Part shown: in pieces, positions 6,345 through 63,702 of the stretch | How positions within the stretch are numbered: the stretch's first letter is position 1 | Layout of the letters: every line of letters begins with the position of its first letter | NCBI GenBank assembly: GCA_965226795.1 | Contig: CBDDDZ010000002.1 | Coordinates: forward strand, 96,001-160,000 | DNA: 64,000 bases | DNA from: Candidatus Latescibacterota bacterium | Lineage (GTDB): Bacteria; Latescibacterota; UBA2968; GCA-2709665 | Direction: 5' to 3' | Notes under the pieces: model-generated | Databases searched by the model: none | What the model was told of the DNA's origin: nothing | What the model saw: only the letters and a program-made list of their open reading frames with translations | Program-made: the position numbers and the translations under genes

Positions 6345-6502
6345 TATGCGGAACGGTCCGGCTTACCCGTGTGCTGGCGGCAATACTTCCGAAAATTTGC
6401 GGCCGGGCACTTTTTCGAACGACCCGTTAGGTGCCGTCGTGTCGGGGCGGCGCGGGCGTCCCGGTTCTCCTGATGAGGCATCGGGCGGATGGGGGATTCA
6501 CC

Positions 6503-7525
6503 ATGCGTGAGAGCGACATAGGGATTGGAATCATTGGAGGAGGTAAGGCGGGTCGGAATTTCGCCATGGCCATCCGATCGTGCGCGGGAGCCGAAGTACG
6601 GATGTTCTGCACCCGACACGAGGAGTCTGCGAGGGAGGCGGCGGAATTCTGCGGGGTTGCGGGATGGACCACCCACTATCCCGAGATGTTGCGGAATCCG
6701 GATATCCAGGCGGTTATTGTCGCCACGCCCGATGAATTTCACTGCGAGCACACGGTCCTTGCCGCCCGGGCGAAAAAACATGTGTTGTGCGAGAAGCCGA
6801 TGTGCCGATCTCCCGAAGAGGCGGATCGGATGATTCGAGAAGCGCGTGAGAACGGTGTGATTCTGATGGTTGGATTCACGGAGCGGTACAGCCATCCCTG
6901 CGCCGAAGCCAAAAGGAGGATCGACGCGGGCGAGATCGGCACGCCCAGGATGATGCTTGCCAGGCGATGCCATCCGCTTTCCGTGCTGAGAGGCAGGGCT
7001 TGGGTCAACGACGATGAAACCGGAGGCGTCCTGAATTATGCCGGGCCTCACAATATCGATCTGGTTTGCTGGTTGATGGGAGGGGCGCCGGAACGGGTGT
7101 ACGGTGAGATGGGTCAACTCATTCTGAAGGATCAGAATTTCACGGATTGCGCGGTGATGACGTTCAAGTTTCCCAATGGGTCCATCGCGGCGCTCTACGA
7201 GACCTTTGCGTACCCGGGAACCTATCCCCACGGCGTGGACCGGAATATCGAGATCCTGGGAGACCGGGGGGTCTTGCACGTCGACTTTATGTCACAGCCC
7301 TTGAAGGTGTTTACGGACGCCGGCTTCGAGTTGGCCGATTCGATTACGTGGCCGATGGCCGAACGCGGAATTCAGGGGGCGCTGCTGGCCGAAGTCGAGC
7401 ATTTCATCGGTTGCGTACGGGCGGGAAAAACGCCTCTGACGACAGGGGAGGATGGCAAACTCGCCATGAAGATCGCGCTTGCTGCGAGAGAGGCCGCCAG
7501 CACCGGAAGAGCCATACCCATTTAG
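6503..7525 (+). CDS. Gfo/Idh/MocA family oxidoreductase
   Basis: IGIIGGGKAG, VATPDEFH, HVLCEKPM. Confidence 0.9.
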   Translation: MRESDIGIGIIGGGKAGRNFAMAIRSCAGAEVRMFCTRHEESAREAAEFCGVAGWTTHYPEMLRNPDIQAVIVATPDEFHCEHTVLAARAKKHVLCEKPMCRSPEEADRMIREARENGVILMVGFTERYSHPCAEAKRRIDAGEIGTPRMMLARRCHPLSVLRGRAWVNDDETGGVLNYAGPHNIDLVCWLMGGAPERVYGEMGQLILKDQNFTDCAVMTFKFPNGSIAALYETFAYPGTYPHGVDRNIEILGDRGVLHVDFMSQPLKVFTDAGFELADSITWPMAERGIQGALLAEVEHFIGCVRAGKTPLTTGEDGKLAMKIALAAREAASTGRAIPI

Positions 7526-7579
7526 GGCGCGTTCGAGGCGTCCGGAGCGGTGTGCGGAAATTCGATGGAAAGGGAGCTT

Positions 7580-10500
7580 ATGTTGCCTATCGATCAGAAT
7601 GCGCCGGTGCCACGGCCGGGAAGGTCAATCTGGTACACGGAGGAAGGGATTCGCCGGGCCCGGGAGAATATCCGTACGCAGGCGTGGGCCGCGAAGGAAT
7701 GGGAGCGGATCAGCACGGTTGCGGAGAGGTGGGTCCGGGTGTCCGACGAGGAGATACTGGCGCTGGTGCCGGCCCAAGGGTCGATTTTCTGCAGCGGACG
7801 GAACGGGAGCCCATGCTGCAAGGCGGCCTGGCGGTGCGACGTGGCACAGCCCCGGCGGGCTTTCTGTGCGGACTGCGGGCGCGAATATCCGGAGAATCGG
7901 AAGGGGTCCCGATTCAGCGACGAAGGACACGGCTTCTACTACGAAGGGAAATGGTTCGCGCCGGTGCCCGTGTGGAACAGCTATGTCGTGAGTATGCTGA
8001 GCACCTACTCGTACGGGTCCGGCGGGCCCACGGACAACGCCCTGTTGAATCTGGCCCTGGCCTATGCGATTACCGGCGAGACCAGATTCGGCGAAAGGGC
8101 CTTGCTGATTTACGACGCGCTGGCCACGCTGGCGCCCACGACGATCGGTCCGCTGGATATTCCCGAGGGTCAGGAGCGGGAGATGGGGCGCATGCACGCG
8201 GAGACGTGCCACGTCAACCGGCAGCGTTTTGTGGACATGCAGGCATACGACCTGATCTCCGGTCTTGACGGGATGGATGAGCCGTCTCCGACACGCGGCG
8301 ACCGGCGTGTGCGCATCCGGGAGAATATCGCCGAGGGAATGCTGGAAGACTATGTGATGACGGAGGGAGGCGGGTACAACCTGCGTGAGGGGAATCTCAC
8401 CCATTTCCAGAATCACGAACTGGATGGATTCCGGGCGCTGCTGTCGATCGGGCTGGCGACGGATCAACCCGATTTCATCAGGTGGGCGGGCAGTGCTTTC
8501 CGGGCATTTCTGGAGAATGTCATCGGCCGGGACGGGGGATACTACGAAAATTCCGAGATGTACGCGTATTTCTCCGGTACGCTGATGCAGGACGTGGCGG
8601 AACTGTTGTACCACTACGATCCCGGCAAGTACGCTTCGCCCGATGATTACCCGCCGGCGGAAGCGCTGGTGGGGCTGAAGAATGCCTTCGATCACCCGCG
8701 CCTCGTCCGGTTGTGTCTGGAGTACACGGAATTGATCCGGGCGTGCGGTCGCATCCCCTCTTATGGAAATACGAACGCGCTCCCGGGTTACCGGCCGCCT
8801 TCCAAACGCCAGGTGATGCCCTCGCACTGGTCGCTGCTGGAGCGGCTCTACTTCCGGAGCGAAAATGCCGACACCCGGCAGCGGGCGAAAGAATTGATGC
8901 TGGATCTGTCGGACGGCGCGGCGGAAAACGTCCGTAACGGCACGTGGGCGCTGTTCAATTCGAAACCCGGGCCGGCCGGGGAAGCCCGGAGCACGCCGCC
9001 GTCGGCCTCTTCTTTTGTCGGCCATAAGGGCGTGGTGGTCCTGCGCAGCGGGACCGGAGACCGGTCACGGGCGCTGATTGTGCGGGGAGGCGCGAATCTG
9101 CTGTCGCAGGACGACCAGTTGGCGGCATTTCTGTACGATAGGGGCCGGATGGTTATCGAAGACGTGGGTTATGCACTGGCCGGTTCACACGTACACAAGG
9201 GATGGGGCATGCGGGCGATCTCCCACGCGATGGTAACCGTGGACGAGGATATTCCCACGTCTCAGGGCTACGAATTCGTGCCGAGCGCGGACCTGGTCGC
9301 CTTCGAGGATCTGGGCGGCGTGAAGATCGCGGAGTACTCCGCGCCGCTGTCCAGGATCCACCAGGGTGCGACCGAGTACCGCCGGGCGCTGATCTTTTGC
9401 GACGTGGACGAGGCGACGTCCTACACGCTGGACCTGTTCCTGGTGGCCGGAGGGCGCATCCACGACTATGCGATGAACGGTCCCAGGTTCTTCGAAGGGG
9501 ACTCGGGGTCGTATTCGCTGGAAGGCGTGTCGCCGGAGGCCCGCGCGGGGGTCTGGACGCTGGCGGCGCTCGGGACCATGGACGGCTCCGAAGAGGCGAA
9601 CGCGCCCGGAAAAAGCTGGGGGGAACGGATCGGTCCCAACGATCGTATCCAGGGCGTGGCCGCTCCGGACGGAAGCCCGTTGCCCTACGGATGGCTGCCG
9701 CCCCCCGGAAACGGGTACGCGTTCGTCCACGACGTGAAGACCGCCGCGCTGGAACACGACGCGTACGCGCACTGGCGCTTCGGAGACGTGCGGGATACCC
9801 ATTACGGTGTCTGGTTTCCCGCCGACCACTCGGCGACCCTGATCGCCGCGAAGGGACCCGATTTGAAAGGCGCCCAGCAGATCCATCGGTTGATAGTAAG
9901 GAGAGAAGGGGAGGATCTGAAGAGCCTGTTTGTCAGCGTGTTCGAGGCGTTTTCCGGTTCGCTCAACGTGGTGGGCGCCAGGGTGCTTGCCCGCGACGCG
10001 GACACAGGCAGCGCCGCGGTTCGGGTCGAACTGGCGGACGGCAGGCGGGATACGCATCTCTTTTCGCGGGACGGTTCGATCGAAGTCCGGGATCCCGATG
10101 GGGTTCCCATTGCGCTTTCAGGGCGGTTCGGGGTCGTACGCGAACGGGACGGAGAGGTGGCGCTTTACCTGGTGGAAGGGACGCGCCTGCGGTTTGGAGA
10201 CGCAGAAACGACACTTCCTCAAACCCATTTCGAAGCTCGGATCACGGCAACGGATGCCGATGCGGAGACCGTGTCGATCGACCGGGGCCTGCCGGAAGGG
10301 ATGCCTCTGGAGGGACGGTTGTGCCGCGTGGAAGCAGACGCCGGGGACACGGCCTATTCCCACGGGTCCGGCTACCGGGTTACGGCCGCCGTGGACGGGC
10401 GAAACGCCCGGCTTGTTCTTCAGCACGGGGATCCCCGGCTGGCAAGAGGGACGGTTGTCTCTGTCGAGGCCCCGGATATTCTGGTCTGCGACGTGCCGCT

Positions 10501-10741
10501 TGCGTTTGCCTGGGGTTTCAACAACAGCGGCGACAAGGGTGAATACAGAGGAAAGGTGCTGCGTACGGAGGACGGGTCGTTCATGTCCCGGATCGTCGAA
10601 CTGCTGGCGTTCAAAAAACTCCGGCTGGAATCGGTGGCCGGGCTGCGGGCCGGCAGCCGCTTCGAGATTCTGGACTTCAAGCCGGGCGATCGGATTTCGA
10701 TTCCGAATTCCGGGAGTAGATGCCTGGCGCGGCGAACCTGA
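7580..10741 (+). CDS. Heparinase II/III / alginate-lyase-like protein with N-terminal Cys cluster
   Basis: NHE and DGGYYENS toroid motifs; DVGY...SHAMVTVDE C-terminal lyase domain; PCC...CADCGREYP; AAGGGAG RBS. Confidence 0.65.
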   Translation: MLPIDQNAPVPRPGRSIWYTEEGIRRARENIRTQAWAAKEWERISTVAERWVRVSDEEILALVPAQGSIFCSGRNGSPCCKAAWRCDVAQPRRAFCADCGREYPENRKGSRFSDEGHGFYYEGKWFAPVPVWNSYVVSMLSTYSYGSGGPTDNALLNLALAYAITGETRFGERALLIYDALATLAPTTIGPLDIPEGQEREMGRMHAETCHVNRQRFVDMQAYDLISGLDGMDEPSPTRGDRRVRIRENIAEGMLEDYVMTEGGGYNLREGNLTHFQNHELDGFRALLSIGLATDQPDFIRWAGSAFRAFLENVIGRDGGYYENSEMYAYFSGTLMQDVAELLYHYDPGKYASPDDYPPAEALVGLKNAFDHPRLVRLCLEYTELIRACGRIPSYGNTNALPGYRPPSKRQVMPSHWSLLERLYFRSENADTRQRAKELMLDLSDGAAENVRNGTWALFNSKPGPAGEARSTPPSASSFVGHKGVVVLRSGTGDRSRALIVRGGANLLSQDDQLAAFLYDRGRMVIEDVGYALAGSHVHKGWGMRAISHAMVTVDEDIPTSQGYEFVPSADLVAFEDLGGVKIAEYSAPLSRIHQGATEYRRALIFCDVDEATSYTLDLFLVAGGRIHDYAMNGPRFFEGDSGSYSLEGVSPEARAGVWTLAALGTMDGSEEANAPGKSWGERIGPNDRIQGVAAPDGSPLPYGWLPPPGNGYAFVHDVKTAALEHDAYAHWRFGDVRDTHYGVWFPADHSATLIAAKGPDLKGAQQIHRLIVRREGEDLKSLFVSVFEAFSGSLNVVGARVLARDADTGSAAVRVELADGRRDTHLFSRDGSIEVRDPDGVPIALSGRFGVVRERDGEVALYLVEGTRLRFGDAETTLPQTHFEARITATDADAETVSIDRGLPEGMPLEGRLCRVEADAGDTAYSHGSGYRVTAAVDGRNARLVLQHGDPRLARGTVVSVEAPDILVCDVPLAFAWGFNNSGDKGEYRGKVLRTEDGSFMSRIVELLAFKKLRLESVAGLRAGSRFEILDFKPGDRISIPNSGSRCLARRT

Positions 10742-10824: not shown

Positions 10825-10852
10825 TTGAATTTTCGAGATATTTCCATATTAT
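10825..10852 (+). promoter_or_regulatory. Putative sigma70 promoter for the transporter operon
   Basis: TTGAAT-N16-TATTAT in an AT-rich patch about 110 nt before ATG 10962. Confidence 0.5.
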
Positions 10853-10961: not shown

Positions 10962-12926
10962 ATGCAGCAAGCGCAGCCGGATTCACACCCTGAAGCGGAC
11001 GTGGGCCAGGAACGATGGGGCGTAACCGTGCGGGCGGTCGCCATCGGGCTTGGCGTGGCCCTTTTCATTCAGGGATGGGGCATTTTCTCCAGCCGGGTGA
11101 TCCGGTCGTCCGGCGTGACGTCGGGTTTTCTTTCGCCAGCCCTCTTCATTGCGATCCTGCTTGTACTGTTCGTCCTGAACCCCCTCCTGAAGCGGGTCGT
11201 GCGGTCCCGCGGGCTGAACCTTGCGGAGATACTGACGATTTTCGCGATGGGGCTGATGGGCGGCGCGCCGATCGCGGCATTGTATGCCTTTATAACAATT
11301 CCGTACTACCTGGCCACTCCGGAGAACCAGTGGGGTAACCTCCTTCACCCCCACCTGCCTTCCTGGGTTGCACCCCTCGACGTGGACGGCGCCGTTACGC
11401 TTCTCTTCAATGGCCTGCCAGGTGGTCAGGGTACGATTCCATGGGGTGCGTGGGTCGTGCCTATGTTCTGGTGGGGGCTTCTGTTCTGCGTTCTGGCTTT
11501 TGCCGCGGCTTCTCTTTCGGTGGTACTCCGAAAACAGTGGGTGGAACACGAGCGGCTGCGATACCCGGTCCTGGAACCGATCGTGGAGATGGCCAGGGGT
11601 TCGGATTCCAGCGGATGGTGGCCGCAGTTCGCCCGCGGAAAGCTGTTCTGGTTCGGTGCGGGGATCGCGTTCGTATTTATTTTCTGGAATGCGCTGCCAT
11701 GGATTTCTCCGGCCTTTCCCGAGATGCCGGTCCGGGGCAGGGTGTACGCCTTCTTCGGGCGGGATATGCCGCCGATGTTCAGCTATATAGACCCGTTTTC
11801 CATCGCGTTTTCCTATTTTGCAAATCTGGACGTGCTGTTCAGCGTCTGGTTCTTTTTCGCGGTGTTCGTGCTGGAGTTCGGGATTTTCAACCGGCTGGGC
11901 TACAGCATCGGCGGGCGCGGCGACCGGTACGGGTCCTACGACGCGGCGTCAAGCTGGCAGGGTCTGGGTGCGTTCTGCGTTTTCGTGTTGTTCGGCCTGT
12001 GGATGGCCAGGCGCCATCTGAAAGACGTGGCGATGAAGGCGTGGCGGTCGGACCATCCCGTGGACGATTCGCGGGAGATGTTGTCGTATCGCACCGCGGT
12101 TGTGGGGATAGTGGTGGGTATTGTATTCACGGTCGTGTGGCTGAATCGGGCGGGGATGGACTTGCAGATGGCGATTCCGCTGGTGGCGATGCTGTTCGTT
12201 CTCTACATCGGCGTCGCGCGGATCATCGCCGAGTCGGGCCTGTTGTATGTGCAGGGGCCGATGACGGCGCAGAGCTTTTCGGTGTATCTGCTCGGCGCCG
12301 AAGCGGTGTCGCCGTCGAGTCTGACCACGCTCCTGTTTTCCTATCCGATCCACGCGAATTCGACGTCGCAGATGTCGCATGTGGCCAAGGTGGCCGGACA
12401 GATCCGGGATCGGGGAAGGCGGCTGTTCTGGGCGGTCTGTCTGTCGTTCGTGGCGACGACCCTGGTCGTGATCATCGGGACGCTCTATCTGGGCTATACC
12501 GGCGGGGCCGAGAATTTCGGACACGGCTTTATCTGCGGGGGCGTGCACAATTTTCCGGATACCGTGAGCAAGATCAAGGAGCCGTTCGAGCTCGACTGGA
12601 ATCGGATTATGTTTTTCGGTATCGGCGCCGCGGTCATGGCTTTACTGACTTTACTCCGCTACCGGTTTCCGTGGTGGCCGATCCATCCGGTGGGGTTCGC
12701 CATTATGGGGACGGATCTGGTGAGGAATTTCGCACTGACGCTGTTTCTGGCGTGGTCCTGCAAATCGGTTATCCTTCGCGTGGGCGGGAATACGCTGTTC
12801 AGACAGGCGCAGCCGTTTTTCCTTGGCCTGCTGGTGGGGCACGTACTTGGAATAACGGGCGCGTTTCTCGTGGATATGTTCATGTTCCCCGGAGCCGGAC
12901 ATAGCATCCACCCGTGGATTGAATAG
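10962..12926 (+). CDS. DUF6785/DUF6784-like polytopic membrane protein (OPT-like putative transporter), copy 1
   Basis: Many TM segments; YLATPENQW, IPWGAW, QWVEHERLRYP, LRYRFPWWPIHPVGF; GGGAG RBS. Confidence 0.75.
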   Translation: MQQAQPDSHPEADVGQERWGVTVRAVAIGLGVALFIQGWGIFSSRVIRSSGVTSGFLSPALFIAILLVLFVLNPLLKRVVRSRGLNLAEILTIFAMGLMGGAPIAALYAFITIPYYLATPENQWGNLLHPHLPSWVAPLDVDGAVTLLFNGLPGGQGTIPWGAWVVPMFWWGLLFCVLAFAAASLSVVLRKQWVEHERLRYPVLEPIVEMARGSDSSGWWPQFARGKLFWFGAGIAFVFIFWNALPWISPAFPEMPVRGRVYAFFGRDMPPMFSYIDPFSIAFSYFANLDVLFSVWFFFAVFVLEFGIFNRLGYSIGGRGDRYGSYDAASSWQGLGAFCVFVLFGLWMARRHLKDVAMKAWRSDHPVDDSREMLSYRTAVVGIVVGIVFTVVWLNRAGMDLQMAIPLVAMLFVLYIGVARIIAESGLLYVQGPMTAQSFSVYLLGAEAVSPSSLTTLLFSYPIHANSTSQMSHVAKVAGQIRDRGRRLFWAVCLSFVATTLVVIIGTLYLGYTGGAENFGHGFICGGVHNFPDTVSKIKEPFELDWNRIMFFGIGAAVMALLTLLRYRFPWWPIHPVGFAIMGTDLVRNFALTLFLAWSCKSVILRVGGNTLFRQAQPFFLGLLVGHVLGITGAFLVDMFMFPGAGHSIHPWIE

Positions 12927-12944
12927 GCTGACGTACGAGGGCGA

Positions 12945-15900
12945 ATGATGTTTAACGTAATCAAGAGGGTTCTTCTTGTTCTGCTGACGCTCGGCGTTCT
13001 CGCAGTCGTGGTGGTATTCGATCCCGAGGAAGTGTCCGACGTGATACGGGATACGCTCCATATCCGGCAGGTGGCGCCCCCCGAGCAGGTGCGTGGGGCT
13101 CTCTCGGCCGAGGATCGTGCGGTTCGACGGGTCGTGGATGCGATAACCGAAGAGGAGGTACGGTCTCATGTGGCGGCATTCACCCGGATGCCGTCTCGCG
13201 TGGTGGGGTATGGCGGGGAACGGCAGGCGCGGGATTACGTCCGGTCGCAATTCGAGGCGCTCGGCCTGGAGCGAGTTACCACGGAGCCGTTCGACGTGAC
13301 GGTGCCGATCGACGCGGGAGGCGTGCTGAGGCTGGAAACCACCGGGGAGGAAATGCCCGTTTACTGTCTCTGGCCGAACGATGTACGTACTTCCACGCTG
13401 CCGGCCGGAGGCGTTGGCGGGCCGTTGATCTACGGGCGCAAGGGGGAGTTTTCGGACTACAACGGGGCGGTTGTGGATGGCAGCGTGGTGTTGATGGACT
13501 TCGGTTGCGGGCAGAACTACCTGAACGCGCTGACCCTTGGCGCGAAGGCGATTCTGTTCTTCGACGACGGCAACGTTACGCGCGGGGAGGCGGAGGACAA
13601 GCTTCTCGAGGTGCCGGTGAACGTGCCCCGGTTCTGGGTTGACCGGGAGGACGCGCAACGCCTCCTGAAGCGGGTCGAGATGGGGGACGCACGGGTGCAT
13701 CTGACGGCGCGGATGGACTGGAAGACGGTAGAGTCGGCGAATGTGTACGGCTATCTGCCGGGATCGGACGAGCGCATTCCTGGCGGGAACGGCCGCAGGT
13801 GGAAGGACCGGCTGATCGTGGTGGGTGCCTACTATGACGCCATGTCCGTTGTGCCGGCGCTCGCCCCGGGTGCCGAAAGCGCCTCGGGAGTTGCCGCGAT
13901 GCTGGAGGTGATTCGGTCTCTAAAGCGTTACGGTTCCAGATATTCCTTTCTCTTTCTGGCCACCTCGGCTCACTTCGAGGGCCTGTCGGGAATCAACGAT
14001 TTCCTCTTTCGGCATTCCCGGCGGAGCAATTATTTCCTGGATCGGATTCCTGACGCGGACCGGATCGACTTCAGCCTGTTCATTGGGCTCGACCTTTCCA
14101 GCAAAAGCAGGCAGGTGGGCGGATTCGCGATGGGCACGTTCTACAATCCCGGCAAAGCAACGGACGAATACCTCAAGAATCTGCTGACACCCTATTCACA
14201 CAGGCTCCGCGAATATGCGACGACGCTCTTCCCCGGCGAAGAGCGCTACGTGGACGTGGTGGCGCCGGCCAAGCGGCCATGGACGTCGTTTATGCCGGTT
14301 CCCCTGGCCCTGGAGAGCGAGGCGGCGGTATTTGTCGGGCAGGAGGCCATGACGCTGGTGACGCTGTACGACGGCCGCGTTCGTACGGACACCCCGCTCG
14401 ATCTTCCGGAGGCAATGGCGTTCGACCGGCTGACCGACCAGATTCGCTCGGTGGCTTCAATGATGATCAGGGCGGGGAACGACCCGGCCTTCTTCCGGGA
14501 AACCCAGCTTCGGCTGATGGACCGCGGGCACCGTCTGGCCGGGCGTATTCTCTGGTTCGACAGGGACGTGGATTTCGCGATTCCACGCGTGCCCGTACCC
14601 GGCGCGATCGTGACGTACAAGCAGCCGGGGCCGGGGAGCGTGGCCGGTGTCCGGACGCTGATGGTCACGCAGGCCGCCGCTGGCCCGATTTACGAAGGTC
14701 CGGCCTCCCGTGGGGCGTTGTTCGGTTCCAGGGAGGTGGTTTCGCAGACCGGCCGGTTTGAATTCGACATCGTAAGGAACCGATTCTCCAATCGGATACT
14801 CGCCTACGAGATCGACGGTGAGGGGCAGATCGTTTCGGCGCCTGACATGGGCATGGAGGGAGCCGGATCGGATGGGAAAAACGGGAAATATCCCCTGTTA
14901 CAGGGATACGGGTGGTGGGACAACGAAATGATGGGGGTGCTTTTCAGGTGCCGGGCGCTGAGCCTTTTCGAGATTGTGGATTCGAGTTATCTCTCGGTGC
15001 TGGACCACATGAAGGTGCTGGGAAGGGACAACAGCGAACCGATCGAGTACGGCTTCCAGTACGTCGCCAACCAGGGCCGAAAGGAAGGGAAGGTCACGCA
15101 GGCGTCGGTGGCATTCGCCCCGGCGGGGGAGCGGATCAAGATCCTGATGAGCAGCGGGCTGTTCGGAATCAAGTACCTGCTGATCAACGCGCCGGAAGAT
15201 CTGCTGACCGATCCCGTCGCTCCGCGGCGGGTGGATGCAGCGACGGTGAAGCGGTCCATGGGTACAGGCTACGTCCCGGACGGGAGCGTCATTACCCTGC
15301 CTTCCTACCGCGCGGCGCGGGATATGTGGATCGTGGATGACGTACGGATGAAGCAACTGGCGCGCTACGGCGTGGAGAACCAGCGGCTTTCCCGGCTGCA
15401 CGACCGCGCGCGGGCCTCCCTTCTGGAGGCGCAGGGTCACCTGGAAGACCGCAACTACGACCGGTTCATCGGGGCGGCGAGGGAGGCGTGGGGGCTGGAG
15501 GCGCGCGGCTACCCCGAGGTGAAGGAGACGGCCAACGACACGGTGCGGGGGGTCATTTTCTATTTCGTGCTGCTGCTGCCGTTTTCGTTCTTCTGCGAGC
15601 GGTTGTTTTTCGGGTTTCCCGACGTCCAGAGAAGGATTATAGGATTCGCGGGGATTCTCGTGGCCATGTTCCTGGCGCTGCGGTGGGTGCATCCCGCGTT
15701 CCAACTGTCCGGTTCTCCGTACATCATCTTTCTGGCGTTTGTAATTCTGTGCCTGGGCGGGGTGGCAATGGTGATCGTGGTGTCCAGGTTTGCGGACCAG
15801 GTAAGACGTCTGAAGCAGTCCGCAACGGGTGTGTACGAGGAGGACGTGGGGCGGATCTCGGCGACAATCGTGGCCTTTACATTGGGGGTTTCGAATTTGC

Positions 15901-17660
15901 GGAAGCGCCCCCTGCGCAGCGGGCTGACGGCGGTCACGCTGACATTGCTGACGTTTACGGTGCTTTCGTTCACCTCCGTTCAGACCTATCTGCGTTTCTA
16001 CAAGCTGCCCAGGGACAATCGGCCTCCGTACCAGGGCGCGCTGGTGAGAGACCGGAACTGGAGGGGAATGCAGCCCTCCGTGCTGAACTATATGGAGAGT
16101 CATTTTGGCGGTTTCGCCCGGGTTGCGCCTCGGGCATTTTACATTTCCGAAAAGCGGGGGGAGCGGGCCTATATCGACTTTGAGGAGCCCGAAAGCGGCC
16201 GGCGGAGTTTCGCGAACGGGTTGCTGGGAGTAACGCCGGAGGAATCTGAGGTTATGGGTATGGACCGCCTGCTGACGGCTGGCCGGTGGTTCCGGGAAGG
16301 GGAGCGGCACGCGGTCATCCTGCCCGGAGAACTGGCGGAACTTGTTGGGATCTCTCCCGAGGACGTGGAGGCCGGCCGGGCGCGGGTGCGCATGTTGGGG
16401 GTGGAGCTTGCCGTTATCGGCATTCTGGACTCCAGGGCGGTCGACAGACTGGAGGATATGGACGACGAACGACTGACCCCCATCGACACCACGATGGAGA
16501 CCGCGGGCACGAGCGACTGGCGCAACCTGAGCCAGGATCCGAGGCTGATGGGAGCGGAGCCGATCGAGGCGTTCATTCACCTGGATACGAGCAATACGGC
16601 GCTGCTTCCGTACGAATTCGTCATTGAAATGGGGGGTACGCTCCGATCGATCGCGGTCACCGATTTCAGAGATGCGCAGGGCGGCCCGAGCCGGGACGTC
16701 CGGGGTCAGATCGAGGACTTTATGTCCCGGGTCGCACTGACGATGTTTGTGGGGATCGGCGACGAGGTGACGGTATACAGTTCCATCGGCACCACCTCGC
16801 TTTCCGGCATCGCGAATCTCTTCATCCCGCTGCTGATTGCCTCTCTGATCGTGCTGAATACGATGATGGGCGCGGTATACGAAAGGTTCCGGGAAATCGG
16901 CGTCTATTCAGCAGTGGGGCTGGCGCCCAGCCACATATCCGCGCTCTTCCTGGCAGAAGCCGCTGTGTTTGCCACGCTTGGGGCCGCGTTCGGCTACCTG
17001 ATCGGTCAGGCGCTGGTGATGTTGCTGTACGAACATGGGGCGCTGGGCGGGTTGTCCCTGAACTATTCGTCGTTGTCGGCGGTTACTTCCACGCTGCTGG
17101 TGATGCTGGCGGTGTTCCTGTCCACCCTCTATCCGGCCAGGAAGGCCGAGCAGATGTCCGTGCCCGACGTGACCCGGCGTTGGCAGTTTCCGCAACCGAA
17201 GGGTGACGAGTGGTTCTTTGATTTTCCGTTTACGCTGGCGGGCTCGGAAGCCCTTGGCATGTATACCTATCTGTTTCGTTCTTTCGAATCGTTCGGAGAG
17301 GGTTCTATCGGCAGGTTTGTCTCGCAGGACGTGAGTTTCAGGTCCGAGCCGCTTCCGGCCGGCAGGGGGTATAAGATCGCTCTGCGGATGTGGTTGGCGC
17401 CCTACGATATGGGCATCAGCCAGGACGTCCAGATGAATGCGATTCCCACGGGAGAACACGGTATATACCGCATAGAGGTCCAAATCCATCGCCTGAGCGG
17501 AGACGTGAACTCCTGGCAGCGGGTGAATCGAGGCTTCCTGAACGACATCCGAAAGCTCTTTCTGGTATGGAAAACAATGCCTCCGGAAACAAAGACGGAC
17601 TATGCCCGGCAGGGCGAGGCGGAACTGGAGACGTCGGCGGGCAGGGAGGTCGCGTCTTGA
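12945..17660 (+). CDS. PA + M28-peptidase-like ectodomain fused to FtsX/MacB-type permease (1571 aa)
   Basis: N-terminal TM; SRVVGYGG, GAYYDAMSVVPALAPGAESASG; central TM block; NLRKRPLRSGLT; MGAVYERFREIGVYSAVGLAP...AEA...YPARKA FtsX signature. Confidence 0.8.
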   Translation: MMFNVIKRVLLVLLTLGVLAVVVVFDPEEVSDVIRDTLHIRQVAPPEQVRGALSAEDRAVRRVVDAITEEEVRSHVAAFTRMPSRVVGYGGERQARDYVRSQFEALGLERVTTEPFDVTVPIDAGGVLRLETTGEEMPVYCLWPNDVRTSTLPAGGVGGPLIYGRKGEFSDYNGAVVDGSVVLMDFGCGQNYLNALTLGAKAILFFDDGNVTRGEAEDKLLEVPVNVPRFWVDREDAQRLLKRVEMGDARVHLTARMDWKTVESANVYGYLPGSDERIPGGNGRRWKDRLIVVGAYYDAMSVVPALAPGAESASGVAAMLEVIRSLKRYGSRYSFLFLATSAHFEGLSGINDFLFRHSRRSNYFLDRIPDADRIDFSLFIGLDLSSKSRQVGGFAMGTFYNPGKATDEYLKNLLTPYSHRLREYATTLFPGEERYVDVVAPAKRPWTSFMPVPLALESEAAVFVGQEAMTLVTLYDGRVRTDTPLDLPEAMAFDRLTDQIRSVASMMIRAGNDPAFFRETQLRLMDRGHRLAGRILWFDRDVDFAIPRVPVPGAIVTYKQPGPGSVAGVRTLMVTQAAAGPIYEGPASRGALFGSREVVSQTGRFEFDIVRNRFSNRILAYEIDGEGQIVSAPDMGMEGAGSDGKNGKYPLLQGYGWWDNEMMGVLFRCRALSLFEIVDSSYLSVLDHMKVLGRDNSEPIEYGFQYVANQGRKEGKVTQASVAFAPAGERIKILMSSGLFGIKYLLINAPEDLLTDPVAPRRVDAATVKRSMGTGYVPDGSVITLPSYRAARDMWIVDDVRMKQLARYGVENQRLSRLHDRARASLLEAQGHLEDRNYDRFIGAAREAWGLEARGYPEVKETANDTVRGVIFYFVLLLPFSFFCERLFFGFPDVQRRIIGFAGILVAMFLALRWVHPAFQLSGSPYIIFLAFVILCLGGVAMVIVVSRFADQVRRLKQSATGVYEEDVGRISATIVAFTLGVSNLRKRPLRSGLTAVTLTLLTFTVLSFTSVQTYLRFYKLPRDNRPPYQGALVRDRNWRGMQPSVLNYMESHFGGFARVAPRAFYISEKRGERAYIDFEEPESGRRSFANGLLGVTPEESEVMGMDRLLTAGRWFREGERHAVILPGELAELVGISPEDVEAGRARVRMLGVELAVIGILDSRAVDRLEDMDDERLTPIDTTMETAGTSDWRNLSQDPRLMGAEPIEAFIHLDTSNTALLPYEFVIEMGGTLRSIAVTDFRDAQGGPSRDVRGQIEDFMSRVALTMFVGIGDEVTVYSSIGTTSLSGIANLFIPLLIASLIVLNTMMGAVYERFREIGVYSAVGLAPSHISALFLAEAAVFATLGAAFGYLIGQALVMLLYEHGALGGLSLNYSSLSAVTSTLLVMLAVFLSTLYPARKAEQMSVPDVTRRWQFPQPKGDEWFFDFPFTLAGSEALGMYTYLFRSFESFGEGSIGRFVSQDVSFRSEPLPAGRGYKIALRMWLAPYDMGISQDVQMNAIPTGEHGIYRIEVQIHRLSGDVNSWQRVNRGFLNDIRKLFLVWKTMPPETKTDYARQGEAELETSAGREVAS

Positions 17661-17669
17661 AAGCGCCAG

Positions 17670-17882
17670 CTGGTGTCCCGTCCCAGAAATATGTCACCAT
17701 TCATCCGCCGATTCATCCCGTCCGGCTACGTTGCCTGCGCTGAGCTTGTCGAAGTGCCTTCACTCGCCGACCTTGCCCAGGTCGTCTCGATCAGGCGCTG
17801 GTTCCTGAGCCTGTCGAAGGATGCCAGCCGGGCGACTCGGCGGCCGAAATTTCGACATTCTATTTCCGGGACAGAACACTAG
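17670..17882 (+). mobile_element. MITE-like element with ~22-bp imperfect terminal inverted repeats
   Basis: Left CTGGTGTCCCGTCCCAGAAATA, right TATTTCCGGGACAGAACACTAG; internal TGAGCTTGTCGAAG and CCTGAGCCTGTCGAAGG REP-like motifs; homologous copies elsewhere in the window. Confidence 0.75.
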
Positions 17883-17894
17883 GGAAAACGCGGT

Positions 17895-19862
17895 ATGCCG
17901 AGACCTGCCGGGAAACGTGAAGTGGCGGTAGCCGGCACGAAGTCGGCGTTGCGCGGGGTTTCGGCGCGCGCCCTGAGCGTTGGCCTGGGTATTGCCGCCC
18001 TGCACAATTTCTGGAGCCTGCACTCGCTCTATATCATCCGGGGTTCATGGCTGAACCGGACGCACTTCCCCATGGGTGTGTTCGTGCCGTTCCTGATACT
18101 CGTCCTGTCGGCTCCGATTCTCCGGCGGTTCGTTCCCAGAATGGCGTTGTCCGGCCCGGAACTCCTGGTGGCGCTGTGTGCGGGCCTGGCGGGGGGCATG
18201 GTGCCGACGTTCGGTCTTTCCACGACCTGGATCGGCATGCTGGCGATCCCCGACTACCTTGCCACGCCCGAGAATATGTGGGGCGAGTACCTTCTGCCCC
18301 ATGTGCCCGGCTGGATGCTGCCATCCAACGCGCAAGGCGCCATGAGATGGCTCTTCGAGGGTTTGCCGCCCGGTGAGGGGATTCCCTGGGGCGCGTGGGC
18401 GGCCCCGCTCTTCTGGTGGACCGCGCTGCTCGGCGGGATGGCGCTGGTCTCTTTCTGTTCGGTCGTCGTGCTGCACCGGCAGTGGTCGGGGTACGAACGG
18501 CTGGCTTATCCCATTCCCGCAGTGGCCGCGGATATGGCGGAGGGGGCCGAGGGTAGAGGCGAGTGGGCCGGGTTGTTGCGGAACCGGTTGTTCATTGCGG
18601 GGATGCTTGTCGCGCTCACGATCAAGGTCTGGAACCTGATTCCGGCCTTTGTTCACGGATTTCCGATGATCCGTGTGTTTCACCAGCAGTTGTGGGTGCA
18701 CTTTACGCAATACTCACAGGTCCATGTGAGCCTGAATTTCTATACCATCGGGTTCGCGTACCTGACTGGCCTGGACCTGCTGCTGAGTATCTGGCTGTTT
18801 CATCTGTTTTACATTCTGGAGATCGCGGCTTTCGCCCGGGTTGGACTGGGGATTGCGGGATTCTCCGGCGGGGTGGTGTCCTGGCAGGGCGGCGGCGCGA
18901 TGATGTGCTACGTGGGTCTGGCGCTCTGGACTGCCCGCGGTCACCTCAAACGCGTGGTCCGCTCTGCGCTGGGCCGCGCGGGCGGAGCGAACGACGCGGA
19001 GGCGCTGATGCGTTACGCGTGGGCGGTGTGGGGCCTGATTCTGGGGGTGGCCTTCGTGATCTGCTGGTTGCGGATGGCGGGTATGGGTCTGCTCCTGGCC
19101 ACCGCGTTGACCGTGTTCCTGTTCACCAGTTACCTGGGCCTCGCGCGCATTGTCGCGCAGACCGGCCTGCTTTACGTGAACTTCCCTCTCAGCGGCCAGG
19201 CGCTCATTCTGGGCACGTTGGGCGCGGCGTCCATCCCGGCTCCCGGGCTGACCGCAATGGCTTTTACGAATGTCTTCGCGAACGACCGGATGGGCCTGTT
19301 CATGCCGGCTTTTGTACAGATCGCAAAGCTGGCCGAACGGGTGGAACGGCACCGGAGGCGGTTGGGGTGGGTTGTGGGGCTGGGCCTGCTGACGAGCATT
19401 GCGACGTCGGTGGTCCTGACGCTGTATTGGGGGTATTCCGGCGGGGCCTACAATTTCGGAAGTATCGCGCTGTTCCGCAGGACGGTCCCGAGCGTGAACG
19501 GATACGTCAGCCACATGCGCAGCCCGGATCCCGTTCAGGCGGCGCCGTTTATTCTCTTTGCGGCCGGCGCCGCGGGAATGGCGCTGCTGGCGTTCCTGCG
19601 ATACCGGTTCAACTGGTGGCCGGTGCACCCGGCCGGGCTGGCCGTGGCCTACACCGGCATGACGAAGCACGCGGCTTTCAGCATCTTTGCCGCCTGGATC
19701 TGCAAGTTTATTGTGATAAAAACCGGCGGAATGCTGCTTTATCGGCGGACGGTGCCGTTTTTTATCGGGACGATCGTCGGGTACGCTCTGGCCGTGGCGC
19801 TGGGTTACGTGCTGGACGTAATCTGGTTCGAAGGGCAGGGGCACGCCGTACACGCATATTGA
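17895..19862 (+). CDS. DUF6785/DUF6784-like polytopic membrane protein, copy 2
   Basis: Paralog of 10962..12926: YLATPENMW, IPWGAW, ERLAYP, LRYRFNWWPVHPAGL. Confidence 0.75.
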   Translation: MPRPAGKREVAVAGTKSALRGVSARALSVGLGIAALHNFWSLHSLYIIRGSWLNRTHFPMGVFVPFLILVLSAPILRRFVPRMALSGPELLVALCAGLAGGMVPTFGLSTTWIGMLAIPDYLATPENMWGEYLLPHVPGWMLPSNAQGAMRWLFEGLPPGEGIPWGAWAAPLFWWTALLGGMALVSFCSVVVLHRQWSGYERLAYPIPAVAADMAEGAEGRGEWAGLLRNRLFIAGMLVALTIKVWNLIPAFVHGFPMIRVFHQQLWVHFTQYSQVHVSLNFYTIGFAYLTGLDLLLSIWLFHLFYILEIAAFARVGLGIAGFSGGVVSWQGGGAMMCYVGLALWTARGHLKRVVRSALGRAGGANDAEALMRYAWAVWGLILGVAFVICWLRMAGMGLLLATALTVFLFTSYLGLARIVAQTGLLYVNFPLSGQALILGTLGAASIPAPGLTAMAFTNVFANDRMGLFMPAFVQIAKLAERVERHRRRLGWVVGLGLLTSIATSVVLTLYWGYSGGAYNFGSIALFRRTVPSVNGYVSHMRSPDPVQAAPFILFAAGAAGMALLAFLRYRFNWWPVHPAGLAVAYTGMTKHAAFSIFAAWICKFIVIKTGGMLLYRRTVPFFIGTIVGYALAVALGYVLDVIWFEGQGHAVHAY

Positions 19863-19893
19863 CTTGAGCGCATATAACGGAGGTAATGGACCA

Positions 19894-22800
19894 ATGCGTA
19901 TTCCACCGGTGTACACGGAACTCAAGGATCTCAATCTCGATACGGAACTGGTCCGAAGCGGCCGGGCGAACGTAACGATCGTGGTTCCGGCAGGCCTGAT
20001 TTACGCCGGCTCCGCGAAACGCCTGCAAGCGGCAATAAAGGCGCGAACGGGTGTGCGCGTGCCCATTGTCGAGGAATCGTCCGTGGCGGGTACCGAGCCC
20101 ATTTCAGGACACCTGATCGTACTTGGCAACCGGTCCGGCAGCCACACGATAGAAGCGCTCTACAACCAATACTACACCCTGCTGGATCTGCGCTATCCCG
20201 GGGCTGGCGGGTACGAGGTCCGGTCGCTTCACAATCCGTTCGGCGACGGGAACAATGTGATCTTTGTGGGCGGCAGCGATGCAGAGGGCGTGTCGGCGGC
20301 GGCGGATGCGCTGGTGAGGAAGGTGTCGGAAGCGGAGGGTGAAGAAGGCGCGCTTTCGCTGGGTTGGCTGATGGAGATCGAACTGGGGAGGGGGATTGTG
20401 GTGCCGCAGGACATCCGGGAATTCGAAACCTGGGAGGCCTCCTCGGGATACGGATCGGTGGGGTATTTCGGGTGGAACAGCATCAGCAAGCGGATGGCCA
20501 TGTATTATATGACGGGAGACCCCTTTCACGCGCGGGAAGCCCTCCGGCTGGCCTTCCCGGACGACCGGGCGAAGGCCGAAATCACAGAGATCGATGGAGA
20601 GCGGATCGAGAACAAGGACGAGCCGCTCGGCGGCCCGTACCACTACAACGCGCACATGATGATTCTCTACTGGGATCTGATTGAGGAGAGTCCGGTGTTT
20701 ACGGATGCCGAACGCCTGCGGGTTACGAATGCCTTTGCGTCTCAGCTCGGGCACGCGCAGGACCAGGGCCCGCGGCGGCAGGTGGTGGAGAATGTGCGAC
20801 GCGGCAAAAGGGGATTCGGAGACCCGCCGCACTGCGTGGGGTCGCGGCACGGGCAGTGGTCGGCGATTTCGCTCTACTGCCTGGGCCGATACTTTCACGC
20901 CTACTACCCGCATGCGCTCTGGGAACAATCCATGGAGGCGGCCAGGTGGCATTTTACATCCCTGCATCGACATGCGTGGGTTGACGGGGAGCACGACAAC
21001 CTGTTCTGGTACAATACCGGTATGGCTCCTGTTCTGAGCTATATGCTGCTTACGGGCGACCGGAAGCCGATCGAGAACGGGGTGCTGGCCACCCTGCTTC
21101 GCGGGCAGGAAATCCTCGCCTCGGGTCGCGAACCCGATTGGGCGCTGAATTCCGCGTCCATCGGGTTTCTCAACAAAGCCGCCTATCTGACGGGTGACGG
21201 CCGTTACCGTGAATACCTTCGCCGAACCGGGATGGACCTGGAAAACTTCCGGCTGGGGCAGTCCTTCTGGCCCGAGGGCGATCTCGAGGCCGTGCTGCCC
21301 GCGGACCTGGTGAACAGGTGGTCCATCCATCCCATCCCCGAGCCGATGTGGCGCGAGCGAGCCGGCGGATTGCCGCTGGAAGACTCGTTCCTGTTCGGCA
21401 GCTTTCGGAGCGCGGCCGACTCAACGGGCGATTTCATTCTGGTGAAGGGGATGAACGGCGCGTCTCGGAACGCGTACCACACCTTTGTGATCCTGGAACT
21501 GCGACTGGGAGGACAGACGCTGCTGGAAGGCTATCTGAACCAGGTGCTGACCCGTTCGGAGGGGATGGTAGAGCCCGTTGTGGCGATGGATTCCGCGCTG
21601 AAGTATCGCGATGTGGTCGGGGGGACCGCCGTGATCGCGGCCGTTGTGCCTGGGGCGGCGTTCTGCACGTGGCGCAGGACACTGGCGCAGCGGGTGGGCC
21701 GGTACGCGCTGTTTGTTGACCACCTGACATTCCGAGCGGACAGCGAGGAACTGGAGGTGGAGGTGCTGTGGCAGGGAAAGGGCGCATGGGACGCGCTGCC
21801 GGATGGAGGCGCTGTACGTATCCGGGATGCGGGACAGATCCGCATGTCGGAACCGTTGGAGACCACGGTTGCGGACGGGCAGGCGCGCATGATATGGCGG
21901 GGACGCGTGGAGAAGGGTGGTGGGCAATGCTTTTTCTCGTTGTTGGCGGGGGAGGATACGTCGTGCGCGCGGTTGGGCGAGAATGCCGCGGCCCTGGCGC
22001 TGCCGGAGCCGGCCGTAGCCGCCGTGGGCGAATACGAGGGACTCAGAGGAGACCTGGTGGTGCTGGCGGGAAGCCACCTCCACGGCGTCAACCTGACCGA
22101 GGCGTCGCTGGGCGCCCGGTTTTCCGCTCGAGCGCACCCGTGCAGGTCGACTGGGACTTTCAAAGCGGCACGCTGGAGGTGGTTGCGGATGAGGAGACCG
22201 AAATCCGGTTGGCTGTCGCCGATCCGCGTGGTATGCGCGTGGGCGGAAGGGTTCTGGAGGACGCGGGGGATGGATTGTCCCCAGCGACCGTCCGAATCCC
22301 TGCGGGACGGCACACGGTATCCGGCGCGGTACCGGATGCGGCCGCGCTTGAAAGGGTGACGGCGCGCCTCGAGGGCCTTCTGGAGCAGGGCCGGGATGCC
22401 AGACGGCTATCCGCGGCCGCGCTATCGCCTGTTCTGCCGGATGTACCCTCCATGGCGCCTGTTTTCGCGACCGGCGTGGGTGGCGCGGTGGTGGACCTCG
22501 TCGTCGCCGATTCCGGCGAGGAAACGCGAATCTGTGCGGCTGAAACCCAGAATGTCCACGTGTTGTCACGGGAGGGGGTAGTACTCCGGACCCTGCGGAC
22601 GGATGGTCCCATCCGTCTCCTCCACTGGTGGGCGGAGCACAAACTGCTCCTGGCGGGATGCGTGGACGAGAAGGTCATCGCGTTCGATCCGGATACGGGC
22701 GCCCGGAAATGGGTGTTTGTTTCCGAGGAAGACCCGGCGGTTTTCCGGGCTGCAAAACCGTACTGGTTCAAGACGGCTCCGGGGCACGCGGGCGTTCATG

Positions 22801-23609
22801 GACTCCATTCCGGCGTTTTTCTGGATGGCGAGAGCCAGGCTTTCGTGGGCAGCGCCTGCACACTCGAGATCCTGGATTATAACGGGAATCTCGTGAAACG
22901 GCTTCCGGTGTTCTGGGGGCCGGGTTCCCGGTTTGCCCTGATCGACGGGCCCGAGGGCAGCATCGATCTGCTGATTGCGCGGCAGCCTACGGATTCGCAC
23001 GCGATGGCCGTTGTGAACAACCGCGAGTTGGACCCGAAACAGCGCGGCTTCCGCGACGTGCCGGACGGACAAACGAATATCGGCGGGTGGGCCTGCATGA
23101 GCCGGAAACACATCTTTTACGAGGACCTGGACGGGGACGGCAAAAGGGAAGTGGTCAGCGAGATCAACGGGACCTGGAACCGGGTGACGGTCTGGACGGA
23201 GGATGGGCGGGCGCTGCACAACGTCCACCTCGGCCCGGGGCAGCGCATTCCGGCGGACAACGTGCGGGATTTCGACGTTGTCGACCTGGATGGCGACGGC
23301 AGGAAAGAGCTGCTCGCGGCACTCTCGGGCGGGCTGATACTTGCACTCGATCACCGATGTGAGAAGGTCTGGGCAAGGCGGCTGCCCTGTCCGCCGACGG
23401 TGATGGCAGCCATCGGGGCCGGGGTCGGCGCCAGGGTCGTGGCGGGCTGCGAAGACGGTACGCTGGTCGTCCTGGATGGCGGTGGCAGGGTCGTCGGGTC
23501 GGGCAGGATGACGGGGAGGCCGACCGGAATTGTCCGTGTGGATGGAAATGTCGTTCTGGCAACGGATCAGGGTGAGGTCAGGGAATGGCGGATGGATGAC
23601 CGCAGGTAA
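19894..23609 (+). pseudogene. Lyase-like (heparinase II/III) + FG-GAP beta-propeller protein, frameshifted near 22116
   Basis: N-part shares YPGAGGYEVRSLHNPFGDGNNV and WDLIEESPVF with paralogs; C-part in the 21768 frame has DLDGDG repeats; adding one C at ggcgCCCggtt gives ..LGAPVFRSSAPVQVDWD. Confidence 0.65.
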
Positions 23610-23633
23610 GCGGGACAACGGTTAGGGGGAAAA

Positions 23634-62438: not shown

Positions 62439-62525
62439 CGGGAGGGTAGTCGCCTCACAAAAGTAGATTGTGACGTGTCTATATTGTCTGGAATGTCCGG
62501 CCCGAATTCTTCTTTGGTAGAGAGG

Positions 62526-62760
62526 TCATCCTTGACGGGCTTCGGATAAATCGTTACCAATTCTGACCACTTGTCCGTGTACCAGATCTTCGATCTCGTC
62601 TTCAAAGTTCTCGATGTAGGCTTTCACTTCAATCTCCAAGGCGGCATGCAGCATTTGCCTTGCGCCAGCAGAGAGCAGATCTTCCGAGTTCGGTTTCTCT
62701 TCACTTCTTGCTATCCCTTCTGCCTCGTCCGACGTGTCCAGGGGTAATGGTAACACTCCA
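62526..62760 (-). pseudogene. IS256-family transposase N-terminal remnant
   Basis: EDLLSAGARQMLHAALEIEVKAYIE...VVRIG resembles the IS256 N-terminus; truncated. Confidence 0.55.
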
Positions 62761-62829
62761 GGATACACTCTTGTGTCTCTTTTCATCCGCAGCATTTGAG
62801 TATAAGTCCCTTCAATCACAGGGATTGCG

Positions 62830-63702
62830 ATGATCTATTATCTTCCGACCGTGCGCAGTACACGCGAGGGGTGGGAAACGCTCGCCAAACTCGCCAAAGT
62901 TGCTCAGGGTCTCTATTCGGATGAACTGCAACTCAACATGTCAAAGTTGGATTTTTTCGACGCCAACATGGCCGCACCCCTTGGCGCGATTCTTTCAAGG
63001 GTCGCTGACGGTTTCAATACCATTCGCATCGTCGATATGCCGGGCCCAGTCGAGACAATACTTCGCAAGAATCTGTTTCTAACTCATTATTGGTACAAAT
63101 CACTGGATGACAACAATAATACAACCATGCCATTTCGCCGGCTGCGCCTGAGTGACGAGGGTGAGTTCGAAGAATATATCCATTGGCAACTTACCGGAAG
63201 AGGCATCCCCAGAATGTCCGATGGCGCAAGCAGGATCTTCAAAAAAAAGGTTTTTGAAGTGTATCAGAATGCCGTATTCCATTCTGAATCAAATCTTGGT
63301 GTCTTCGTCTGTGGCCAGTTTTTCCCGCAACAGAACCGGCTTGATTTTACGGTTGCAGATGCCGGTATCGGAATTCGAGAGAATGTTCGTCGGTATTTCA
63401 ATAATCCTCGTATCAACTCGCTTCCAGCTCTCAAATGGGCACTCGAGCCATATCACACCACGAAAAGTGGGCCGTATCCCGGTGGGTTAGGCCTTGAGTT
63501 TCTACAGAAATTCGCTCGTCTGAATGACGGTAAGATTCAGATTGCCTCCCGTTTCGCATTCTATGAGTTAAGCCGTGGCACGGAAACTTTCGCGAATATG
63601 GCGGTTGACTTTCCCGGGACTGCCGTAACCATTGAAATTAACACTGCAGATGAGAGTATTTATTTCCTGGAGAGTAAAAGAAAAGCCGACAGTCCGTATT
63701 GA
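62830..63702 (+). CDS. STAS-like + HATPase_c ATP-binding protein
   Basis: EVYQNAVFHS (N box), VADAGIGI (G1), GGLGL (G2), FPGT; no His phospho-acceptor domain. Confidence 0.8.
   Translation: MIYYLPTVRSTREGWETLAKLAKVAQGLYSDELQLNMSKLDFFDANMAAPLGAILSRVADGFNTIRIVDMPGPVETILRKNLFLTHYWYKSLDDNNNTTMPFRRLRLSDEGEFEEYIHWQLTGRGIPRMSDGASRIFKKKVFEVYQNAVFHSESNLGVFVCGQFFPQQNRLDFTVADAGIGIRENVRRYFNNPRINSLPALKWALEPYHTTKSGPYPGGLGLEFLQKFARLNDGKIQIASRFAFYELSRGTETFANMAVDFPGTAVTIEINTADESIYFLESKRKADSPY

Follow-up and report, generated by a model that had tools for sequence, protein, structure and literature searches.

A DUF6785 and M28-FtsX gene set of Latescibacterota as a possible ABC importer with Yellow-Stripe-fold carriers

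Introduction

Transporters of the OPT family (TC 2.A.67, PF03169) and ATP-binding cassette (ABC) systems of type VII are the closest described counterparts of the three genes analysed here, P0001, P0002, and P0003. These genes lie at 10962-19862 of a 64,000-nt stretch of Candidatus Latescibacterota bacterium DNA (assembly GCA_965226795.1, contig CBDDDZ010000002.1, positions 96,001 to 160,000; hereafter the window, with G000 as its genome). Barley Yellow Stripe 1 (YS1; PDB 7wsr/7wst) of the OPT family is a dimeric, proton-coupled elevator that uses Asp446, Asp490, and Asp494 (PMC9691689; this and the other papers cited here are drawn on in excerpt). The type VII ABC systems include MacB, LolCDE, FtsEX, YtrEF, HrtBA, YbbAP-TesA, and BceAB. 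In group II energy-coupling factor (ECF) importers, many scattered substrate modules are served by one or a few ATP modules with two ATPases (PMC7755397). Finally, the M28 aminopeptidases (2ek8; YwaD, 6hc6) have inactive homologues in nicalin and transferrin receptor 1.

An earlier note, made from the sequence alone, took the trio for a three-component uptake system that works as an alternative to ABC import. Our analysis leads elsewhere. The trio is read as a copy that has become separated from a conserved gene set of the inner membrane, and we see about an even chance that this set imports at the expense of ATP, with a type VII ABC motor driving carriers of predicted OPT fold. Each part has a known fold, and the conserved union of the parts matches no system that we found. 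A literature search for DUF6785, DUF6784, PF20581, and PF20580, with subscription journals and supplements outside its reach, returned nothing, and a search for the union of OPT, FtsX, and M28, judged by title and the start of the abstract, gave no account of such a system. The excerpts of the YbbAP paper (PMC12646458) and of the OPT review (PMC3061005) do not describe it either.

Results

The three-gene locus

All three open reading frames (ORFs) are on the plus strand, and the coordinates and Pfam agree with two paralogous DUF6785 proteins around an FtsX/MacB-type permease, as the earlier note had it. P0001 (10962-12926, 654 amino acids) and P0003 (17895-19862, 655 amino acids) are polytopic, each matches PF20581 DUF6785 (E 1e-100 to 1e-102) and PF20580 DUF6784 (E 1e-20 to 1e-23), and they share 36% identity across 644 amino acids. 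P0002 (12945-17660, 1571 amino acids), a PA/M28-FtsX fusion referred to below as a giant, matches FtsX PF02687 (5.7e-15), M28 (3.1e-5), and PA (1.1e-4). NCBIfam holds no name for any of the three. The closest named relative of P0002 (99%) belongs to a Candidatus Latescibacterota genome, and no relative of P0002 was found on plasmids.

The order DUF6785-giant-DUF6785 is kept in 7/7 closest loci. At G000:C2:206474 there is a tandem DUF pair whose second gene is the sister of P0003, which is likely a second module or a heterodimer partner. The clade of P0002 is sister to the P0008 group; P0002 is therefore probably a later copy that was recruited into the local catabolic operon.

Fold of the DUF6785 proteins

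P0001, the sole DUF6785 protein folded, was modelled with AlphaFold2 from 105 sequences, and the model reached a predicted local distance difference test score (pLDDT) of 93.2 and a predicted template modelling score (pTM) of 0.93. In the Foldseek search, YS1 alone fell below E 0.001 (7wst, 3.1e-7; 7wsr, 4.4e-6). VIA-align placed 535 residues of the model on YS1 with Z 22.2 and a root-mean-square deviation (rmsd) of 4.0, while the next match had Z 5.6. Because the model matches YS1 in both comparisons, DUF6785 and DUF6784 are predicted to form a single OPT-fold chain that is too distant for PF03169, in line with the OPT/YSL fold that had been guessed from the sequence. The likeness extends over the whole predicted chain (TM-score 0.55-0.65), at an identity of 11%. 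The PF03169 profile has no match in this genome at E<=0.01, including P0001 and P0003, and a sequence search of solved structures with the DUF6785 profile was empty. In Atlas, a minority (11-33%) of the members of the DUF6785 and "peptide transporter" clusters are linked to PF03169. We file the DUF6785 proteins as structural relatives of the OPT family, not as members, and on the model P0001 is likely a substrate-translocating module.

The YS1 aspartates were mapped onto DUF6785 via classical bacterial OPTs.

Asp490 and Asp494: The columns mapped to these two residues are non-acidic in 105/105 DUF6785 sequences, in a register that rests on a weak profile alignment. They are also non-acidic in all 49 OPT-like partner proteins that carry the anchor motif, out of 63 examined. 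Both positions are acidic in three classical bacterial OPTs.

Position 424: This position is semi-conserved as Glu (56/105) or Gln (42/105) in the DUF6785 sequences. P0003 carries Gln.

Invariant residues: Q192, W193, E197, P202, R350, H352, G426, H575, W598, K601, and G609 are common to all 23 DUF6785 paralogues of the genome. We read this set as compatible with a common docking surface.

The OPT-like "peptide transporter" found beside many giants is homologous to DUF6785 (hhalign 93%, E 2.6e-7, 566 columns). Some of these partners have a large soluble insertion near the C-terminus, of ~120 amino acids in P0004 (L001:3464-5884) and also present at L122, L072, and L073; the L122 protein is 954 amino acids long.

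Anatomy of the giant

P0002 consists of an N-terminal anchor helix, a PA/M28-like head, a transthyretin-like domain, a helical stalk, three extra membrane helices, a MacB-type core with a periplasmic domain, and a cytoplasmic START/Aha1-like tail, the label of the tail resting on a middling Z of 7-8. A profile of 32 homologues matches the M28 aminopeptidase 2ek8 (E 1.5e-14), nicalin, transferrin receptor, YtrF, MacB, and LolC.

Head: Residues ~56-515 (13110-14489, plus strand) align with 2ek8 and 6hc6, and the profile supports a PA/M28 fold with a non-canonical metal site. The six catalytic and ligand positions are Y296, E311, H343, F344, D383, and D482, and we take their zinc-ligand and catalytic-base roles to be those of M28 enzymes in general. 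In contrast to the M28 aminopeptidases, Y296 stands for the first His ligand, H343 for the catalytic Glu, F344 for the second Glu, and D482 for the last His, whereas E311 and D383 are still acidic. H343 and D482 are invariant in 32/32 homologues. Judged by these residues, the usual two-zinc site is unable to form, and what stands in its place is conserved in an altered form; the conserved H343 and D482 replacements suggest a repurposed site.

Core: The model of residues 515-1571 (pLDDT 87.5) matches MacB/LolCDE at E 3e-10, YtrF at Z 16.0, and the MacB periplasmic domain 3ftj at Z 12.3 (rmsd 3.7, 179 residues aligned). It has four core helices with a large periplasmic domain after helix 1, as is typical of type VII. 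The features shared with type VII systems are an amphipathic helix, the four-helix core, a Porter/Sabre-like periplasmic domain, and the coupling helix, and P0002 is assigned as a type VII ABC membrane subunit. The fused pseudo-peptidase head, the three extra membrane helices, and the START/Aha1-like tail are additions to that plan.

Coupling helix: The major ATPase-coupling helix motif lies at residues ~1310-1325 (16872-16919, plus strand) between helices 2 and 3, a position as in MacB (PMC5985334). It is kept in 232/237 full-length homologues, which is what continued docking of an ATPase would lead one to expect (PMC5985334).

When P0001 was predicted in complex with each of two membrane/tail segments of P0002, with no control folds, the ipSAE values were 0.12 and 0.04 against a mark of 0.32, and we give this result no weight in either direction.

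The giant family comprises 1253 clusters at E<=1e-30. Cluster look-ups for 10 distant homologues returned Brocadiia and Latescibacterota as the sole names. One of 270 giant homologues, P0319, is a natural fusion with a C-terminal DUF6785/6784. Planctomycetota giants of 2770-3140 amino acids with long N-terminal extensions were also seen (L072, L158; P0253, P0255, P0257).

Motor genes in trans and complete operons

Among the 33 window proteins scanned with Pfam, none matches an ABC ATPase or a solute-binding family, so the earlier observation that no such gene adjoins the trio stands. The search for a trans-encoded ATPase that the note had proposed succeeded: two LolD/MacB-type ATPases with intact motifs are encoded at C5:751343 and C5:3054577. 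The second, P0252, stands next to the small FtsX gene P0251 (C5:3054577-3056062; small FtsX at C5:3055373). The full conserved set consists of one or more ATPases, the small FtsX, the giant M28-FtsX, the OPT-like "peptide transporter", a PqqD-like protein, a hypothetical protein of ~300 amino acids, and DUF6785. Every part is encoded in this genome, with the motor genes in trans to the trio; the OPT-like genes are at C5:741463 and C5:2746728, and the ~300-amino-acid hypothetical and PqqD-like genes are at C5:1383106-1384539. In total, we count 23 DUF6785 genes, four giants, one small FtsX, and two ATPases.

One paralogous locus has the order ATPase P0007, DUF6785, giant, OPT-like gene, and the giant closest to P0002 within the genome (55%) is followed by the second OPT-like gene. 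At L068 the operon is complete, with the giant, the OPT-like gene, the ~300-amino-acid hypothetical, the PqqD-like gene, a 228-amino-acid FtsX, and an ATPase; L122, L124, and L127 are likewise complete operons with an ATPase. The small FtsX differs from known type VII subunits in an outer loop of only ~40 residues, and it has a single match per genome in 110/121 genomes of the phylum. An ATPase adjoins it in 20/20 loci fetched. Both ATPases are present in 30/31 relatives, and in 18/31 a giant paralogue has the P0007-type ATPase on its own strand <=5.5 kb upstream. In a quick tree, the operon ATPases form one clade apart from four other MacB/LolD-like ATPases of the genome (Shimodaira-Hasegawa-like approximate likelihood ratio test, SH-aLRT, 95), and the second ATPases do not split into one clean clade. 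Gene order and conservation are the grounds on which we assign a putative physical pairing of P0002 with an ATPase and a second membrane unit.

Bacterial microcompartment shell genes follow the ATPase-DUF6785-giant-OPT-like operon (L001:2456-3010 and downstream; G000:C5:738073-741009), and a group II intron reverse-transcriptase-like fragment, recognised by eye, lies upstream of it.

Linkage and co-occurrence across genomes

The best 80 of at least 558 giant loci were surveyed. A DUF6785 or OPT-like gene lies <=10 kb from the giant in 74/80 and <=1 kb away on the same strand in 53/80, and the six loci that lack a nearby OPT-fold gene are on contigs of just 4-14 kb. Together with the closest loci and the natural fusion, these counts bear out the conserved linkage of DUF6785 with the M28-FtsX fusion on which the earlier proposal depended. 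Each of the four giant paralogues of the genome adjoins particular OPT-fold genes.

Among 28 selected Latescibacterota genomes, 18 have both DUF6785 and the giant and no other has either; 17 of the 18 also have the small FtsX, and one family of 10 genomes has none of the three. Among 151 Planctomycetota genomes, DUF6785 occurs in 26 and the giant in 27, with 26 shared and 124 having neither, and the small FtsX is present in 24 of the 26 DUF6785-positive genomes. At 20 Planctomycetota loci picked by hand, mostly where the parts shared one contig, the OPT-like gene adjoins the giant in 19 and the ATPase and small FtsX are there in 15.

The ratio of modules to motor genes is uneven. G033 has 21 DUF6785 matches with one giant and one small FtsX, some relatives have more than 30 DUF6785 matches, and 19/23 DUF6785 genes of the genome studied here sit away from any giant.

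Flanking genes and cargo

The conserved locus begins with a GFO/IDH/MocA oxidoreductase (6473-7525, plus strand; Pfam), which is syntenic in 5/7 orthologous loci. A heparinase II/III- or alginate-lyase-like protein of 1058 amino acids follows (7565-10741, plus strand). It has no Pfam match, a weak match to alginate lyase 6jp4 (E 0.018), and a match of E 6e-32 to a paralogue at a PF07940 site. Downstream of P0003 are a lyase-like plus beta-propeller gene of ~1250 amino acids (19864-23609, plus strand) and its paralogue of 1232 amino acids (23634-27332, plus strand), which belongs to a distant heparinase II/III-like family with beta-propellers. The former is split by a frameshift in this assembly. 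It is one ORF of 1250-1386 codons in 6/7 orthologous loci, and 2/4 runs have a one-base insertion at the frameshift, which is either a strain variant or an assembly error. The oxidoreductase and lyase-like flanks are kept in 5-6 of the 7 closest loci.

The earlier description of the downstream genes as lyases without signal peptides survives in part. Two of eight members of their family weakly match heparinase II/III (best E 7e-5), whereas the two genes themselves have Pfam matches to beta-propeller families only, the 23634 protein has no heparinase match of its own, and a profile of the downstream proteins against solved structures found no match. A crude hydropathy check found no hydrophobic N-terminus in the 7565 and 23634 proteins; the start at 19909 is ambiguous. 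We regard the flanking genes as encoding, at best, distant heparinase II/III-like proteins. Their unannotated family (1100-1370 amino acids; a distant heparinase II/III-like part with C-terminal beta-propellers) has about a dozen copies, at window positions 19864-27332 and 37648-41514 and at G000 C2:87198 and C2:197368-222477, twice beside DUF6785 pairs.

Genome-wide, the 79 other DUF6785 neighbours form a mixture of catabolic enzymes of the cytoplasm: PhyH dioxygenases, GFO oxidoreductases, homocysteine methyltransferase-like proteins, aminotransferases, amidohydrolases, gamma-glutamyl transpeptidase, UxuA, and two heparinase-like proteins, in a genome with 44 heparinase-like and 97 GFO matches in total. 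Lyase and oxidoreductase enrichment near the DUF6785 loci was non-significant in all six tests (p 0.05-0.28). From these neighbours, the DUF6785 family probably imports varied organic compounds beyond oligosaccharides.

At L004 (G000:C2:204286-212493), a tandem DUF6785 pair like P0001/P0003 stands without a giant; next comes a sugar ABC importer of the classical kind, with its ATPase gene on the other strand. At L005 (G000:C4:89991-100039) and L168, four homocysteine S-methyltransferase-like genes lie beside three DUF6785 genes, which hints at methylated cargo.

Other features of the window

A dispersed repeat of ~210 bp is inserted between P0002 and P0003 (17661-17890, no strand assigned), outside the machine. 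It has 111 BLASTN matches genome-wide, 33 of them >=150 bp, and strong predicted hairpins. It is missing from a related strain, and one contig skips 17670-17883. Copies also adjoin other DUF6785 genes (C2:204084, C2:226643). The sigma70-like promoter proposed at 10825-10852 (plus strand; 9/12 consensus matches) did not hold up, with two sites found against 4.1 expected in shuffled sequence, which is chance level. RNA-library contigs span both the trio and the distant ATPase locus evenly, intergenic repeats included, and DNA carry-over is possible. A SNF2-type helicase with a NOV_C domain, followed by an ATPase-like gene of low G+C content, occupies window positions 58866-63702 and is possibly a defence island. 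At L119 (~6200-6800), beside a WYL-like regulator gene, depth is very high and double-fitting contigs are numerous, which points to a repeat array, possibly one of clustered regularly interspaced short palindromic repeats (CRISPR).

Discussion

From the observed genes, domains, gene order, co-occurrence, and fusion, and from the predicted folds, we infer an assembly with an ATP-driven elevator, exchangeable modules, an inward direction, and a cargo. P0002 would pair with two ATPase domains and the one small FtsX that the genome encodes, while its altered peptidase head would capture or sense periplasmic cargo without cutting it. ATP-driven movement would be passed to a docked OPT-fold protein, whose core would then slide elevator-like. 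The 23 DUF6785 paralogues, mostly alone in catabolic operons, would be exchangeable substrate modules on few shared motors, as in group II ECF systems. P0001 and P0003 may supply the products of the adjoining oxidoreductase and lyase-like genes with imported fragments of sugar acids or oligosaccharides, the cargo being the weakest step. The likeness to group II ECF importers is an analogy, which the gene counts (23 modules, one small FtsX, two ATPases) would fit. The ABC ATPase is the sole family in common: the modules are 650-amino-acid OPT-fold proteins that match YS1 instead of S-components, and the motor matches MacB-type folds instead of EcfT. Relative to known type VII systems, the ATPases and the putative pairing of unlike subunits (as in LolC/LolE) are alike, whereas the carrier-fold partners and motor genes often far from the giant are not. 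Relative to the OPT family, DUF6785 shows an obligate-looking linkage to a type VII ABC that is unmentioned in the excerpt of the OPT review (PMC3061005).

Other arrangements of the same parts were weighed. DUF6785 proteins may be OPT-type carriers driven by an ion gradient, while the type VII ABC acts outside the membrane and ATP loads, releases, or gates cargo held by the pseudo-peptidase head, much like a built-in binding protein. We consider this rather unlikely, although it fits classical mechanotransmission (PMC5985334) and proton-driven YS1 (PMC9691689), accommodates all linkage and co-occurrence data as well as the many DUF6785 genes away from any giant, and could use the common Glu424. 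It is opposed by the apparent absence of the YS1-type coupling aspartates, in a weak register, and by Gln at position 424 of P0003; besides, the extra conserved membrane helices and the conserved cytoplasmic tail of the giant (invariant columns) would be needless for a purely outer job. It is improbable, in our view, that the ABC module serves the OPT-fold proteins in assembly, quality control, or peptide handling, with a nicalin-like dead M28 head and a PqqD-like peptide-binding domain, or that the whole set exports. The head profile does match nicalin and transferrin receptor, the PqqD-like gene belongs to the operon, and extractors such as YbbAP-TesA are found among the type VII systems (PMC12646458). 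On the other hand, DUF6785 genes are embedded among cytoplasmic catabolic enzymes, which suits import, the four giant paralogues each stand beside particular OPT-fold genes, and a permanent giant-DUF6785 fusion exists.

A self-sufficient, ATPase-free oligosaccharide importer formed by the window trio, as in the earlier note, is the arrangement to which we give very little credence. The gene order in the closest loci and the lack of an ATPase gene in the window agree with it, but the coupling helix is kept in P0002 and nearly all homologues, the small subunit and dedicated ATPases exist in trans as conserved genes, and the parental operon contains them. The giant is assigned as a type VII ABC subunit with its ATPases and small FtsX elsewhere, so the view of the trio as an alternative to ABC import is not supported. 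Nor does it replace SusC/SusD, as the note had also suggested: SusC/SusD is an outer-membrane pair, whereas the folds of the trio are inner-membrane folds. The uptake role itself is probable.

Several points weigh against the ATP-powered importer that we favour. YS1 is driven by protons alone (PMC9691689), and known type VII systems work on the outer side with no cargo moved across the inner membrane (PMC5985334). That a type VII motor should drive an elevator carrier is without precedent. The alignment of DUF6785 with classical OPTs from which the aspartates appear to be missing is weak (3% probability, E 0.015), and Glu/Gln424 could be an alternative proton site. The PqqD-like protein, the ~300-amino-acid hypothetical, and the invariant H343 and D482 are left unaccounted for. 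An ATPase of the operon clade lies <=10 kb from the giant in just 1/80 best loci, motor genes being usually unlinked in the phylum. The co-occurring genomes are kin, the 10 Latescibacterota negatives being a single family, and for this kinship we set no store by Fisher tests on the co-occurrence; the Planctomycetota loci were hand-picked. Finally, oligosaccharide specificity is plausible at this locus, but heparinase-like genes are not significantly enriched near the 17 DUF6785 loci of the genome (2/17 within three genes, background 6%, p ~0.28).

We propose, tentatively and at somewhat less than even chance, a new class of ABC importer in which a MacB-type mechanotransducer powers the elevator motion of carriers with the Yellow-Stripe fold whose proton coupling has been lost. 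Each genome would have dozens of carriers that swap on few shared motors with a receptor-like dead-peptidase head, as a main nutrient-uptake route of Latescibacterota and some Planctomycetota. The analysis provides a predicted fold and a testable role for DUF6785/DUF6784, a membrane family without annotation that ranks among the most expanded in these bacteria. Since some small genomes (L122, L124, L127) encode the set as a single operon, direct reconstitution is feasible. If the coupling is true, a primary ATP motor and a secondary-carrier fold, hitherto taken for separate classes of transporter, are united, and import is added to what type VII ABCs do. The cytoplasmic enzymes of sponge-associated and sediment bacteria, whose catabolic gene sets are very large, would then also have an explained route of supply.

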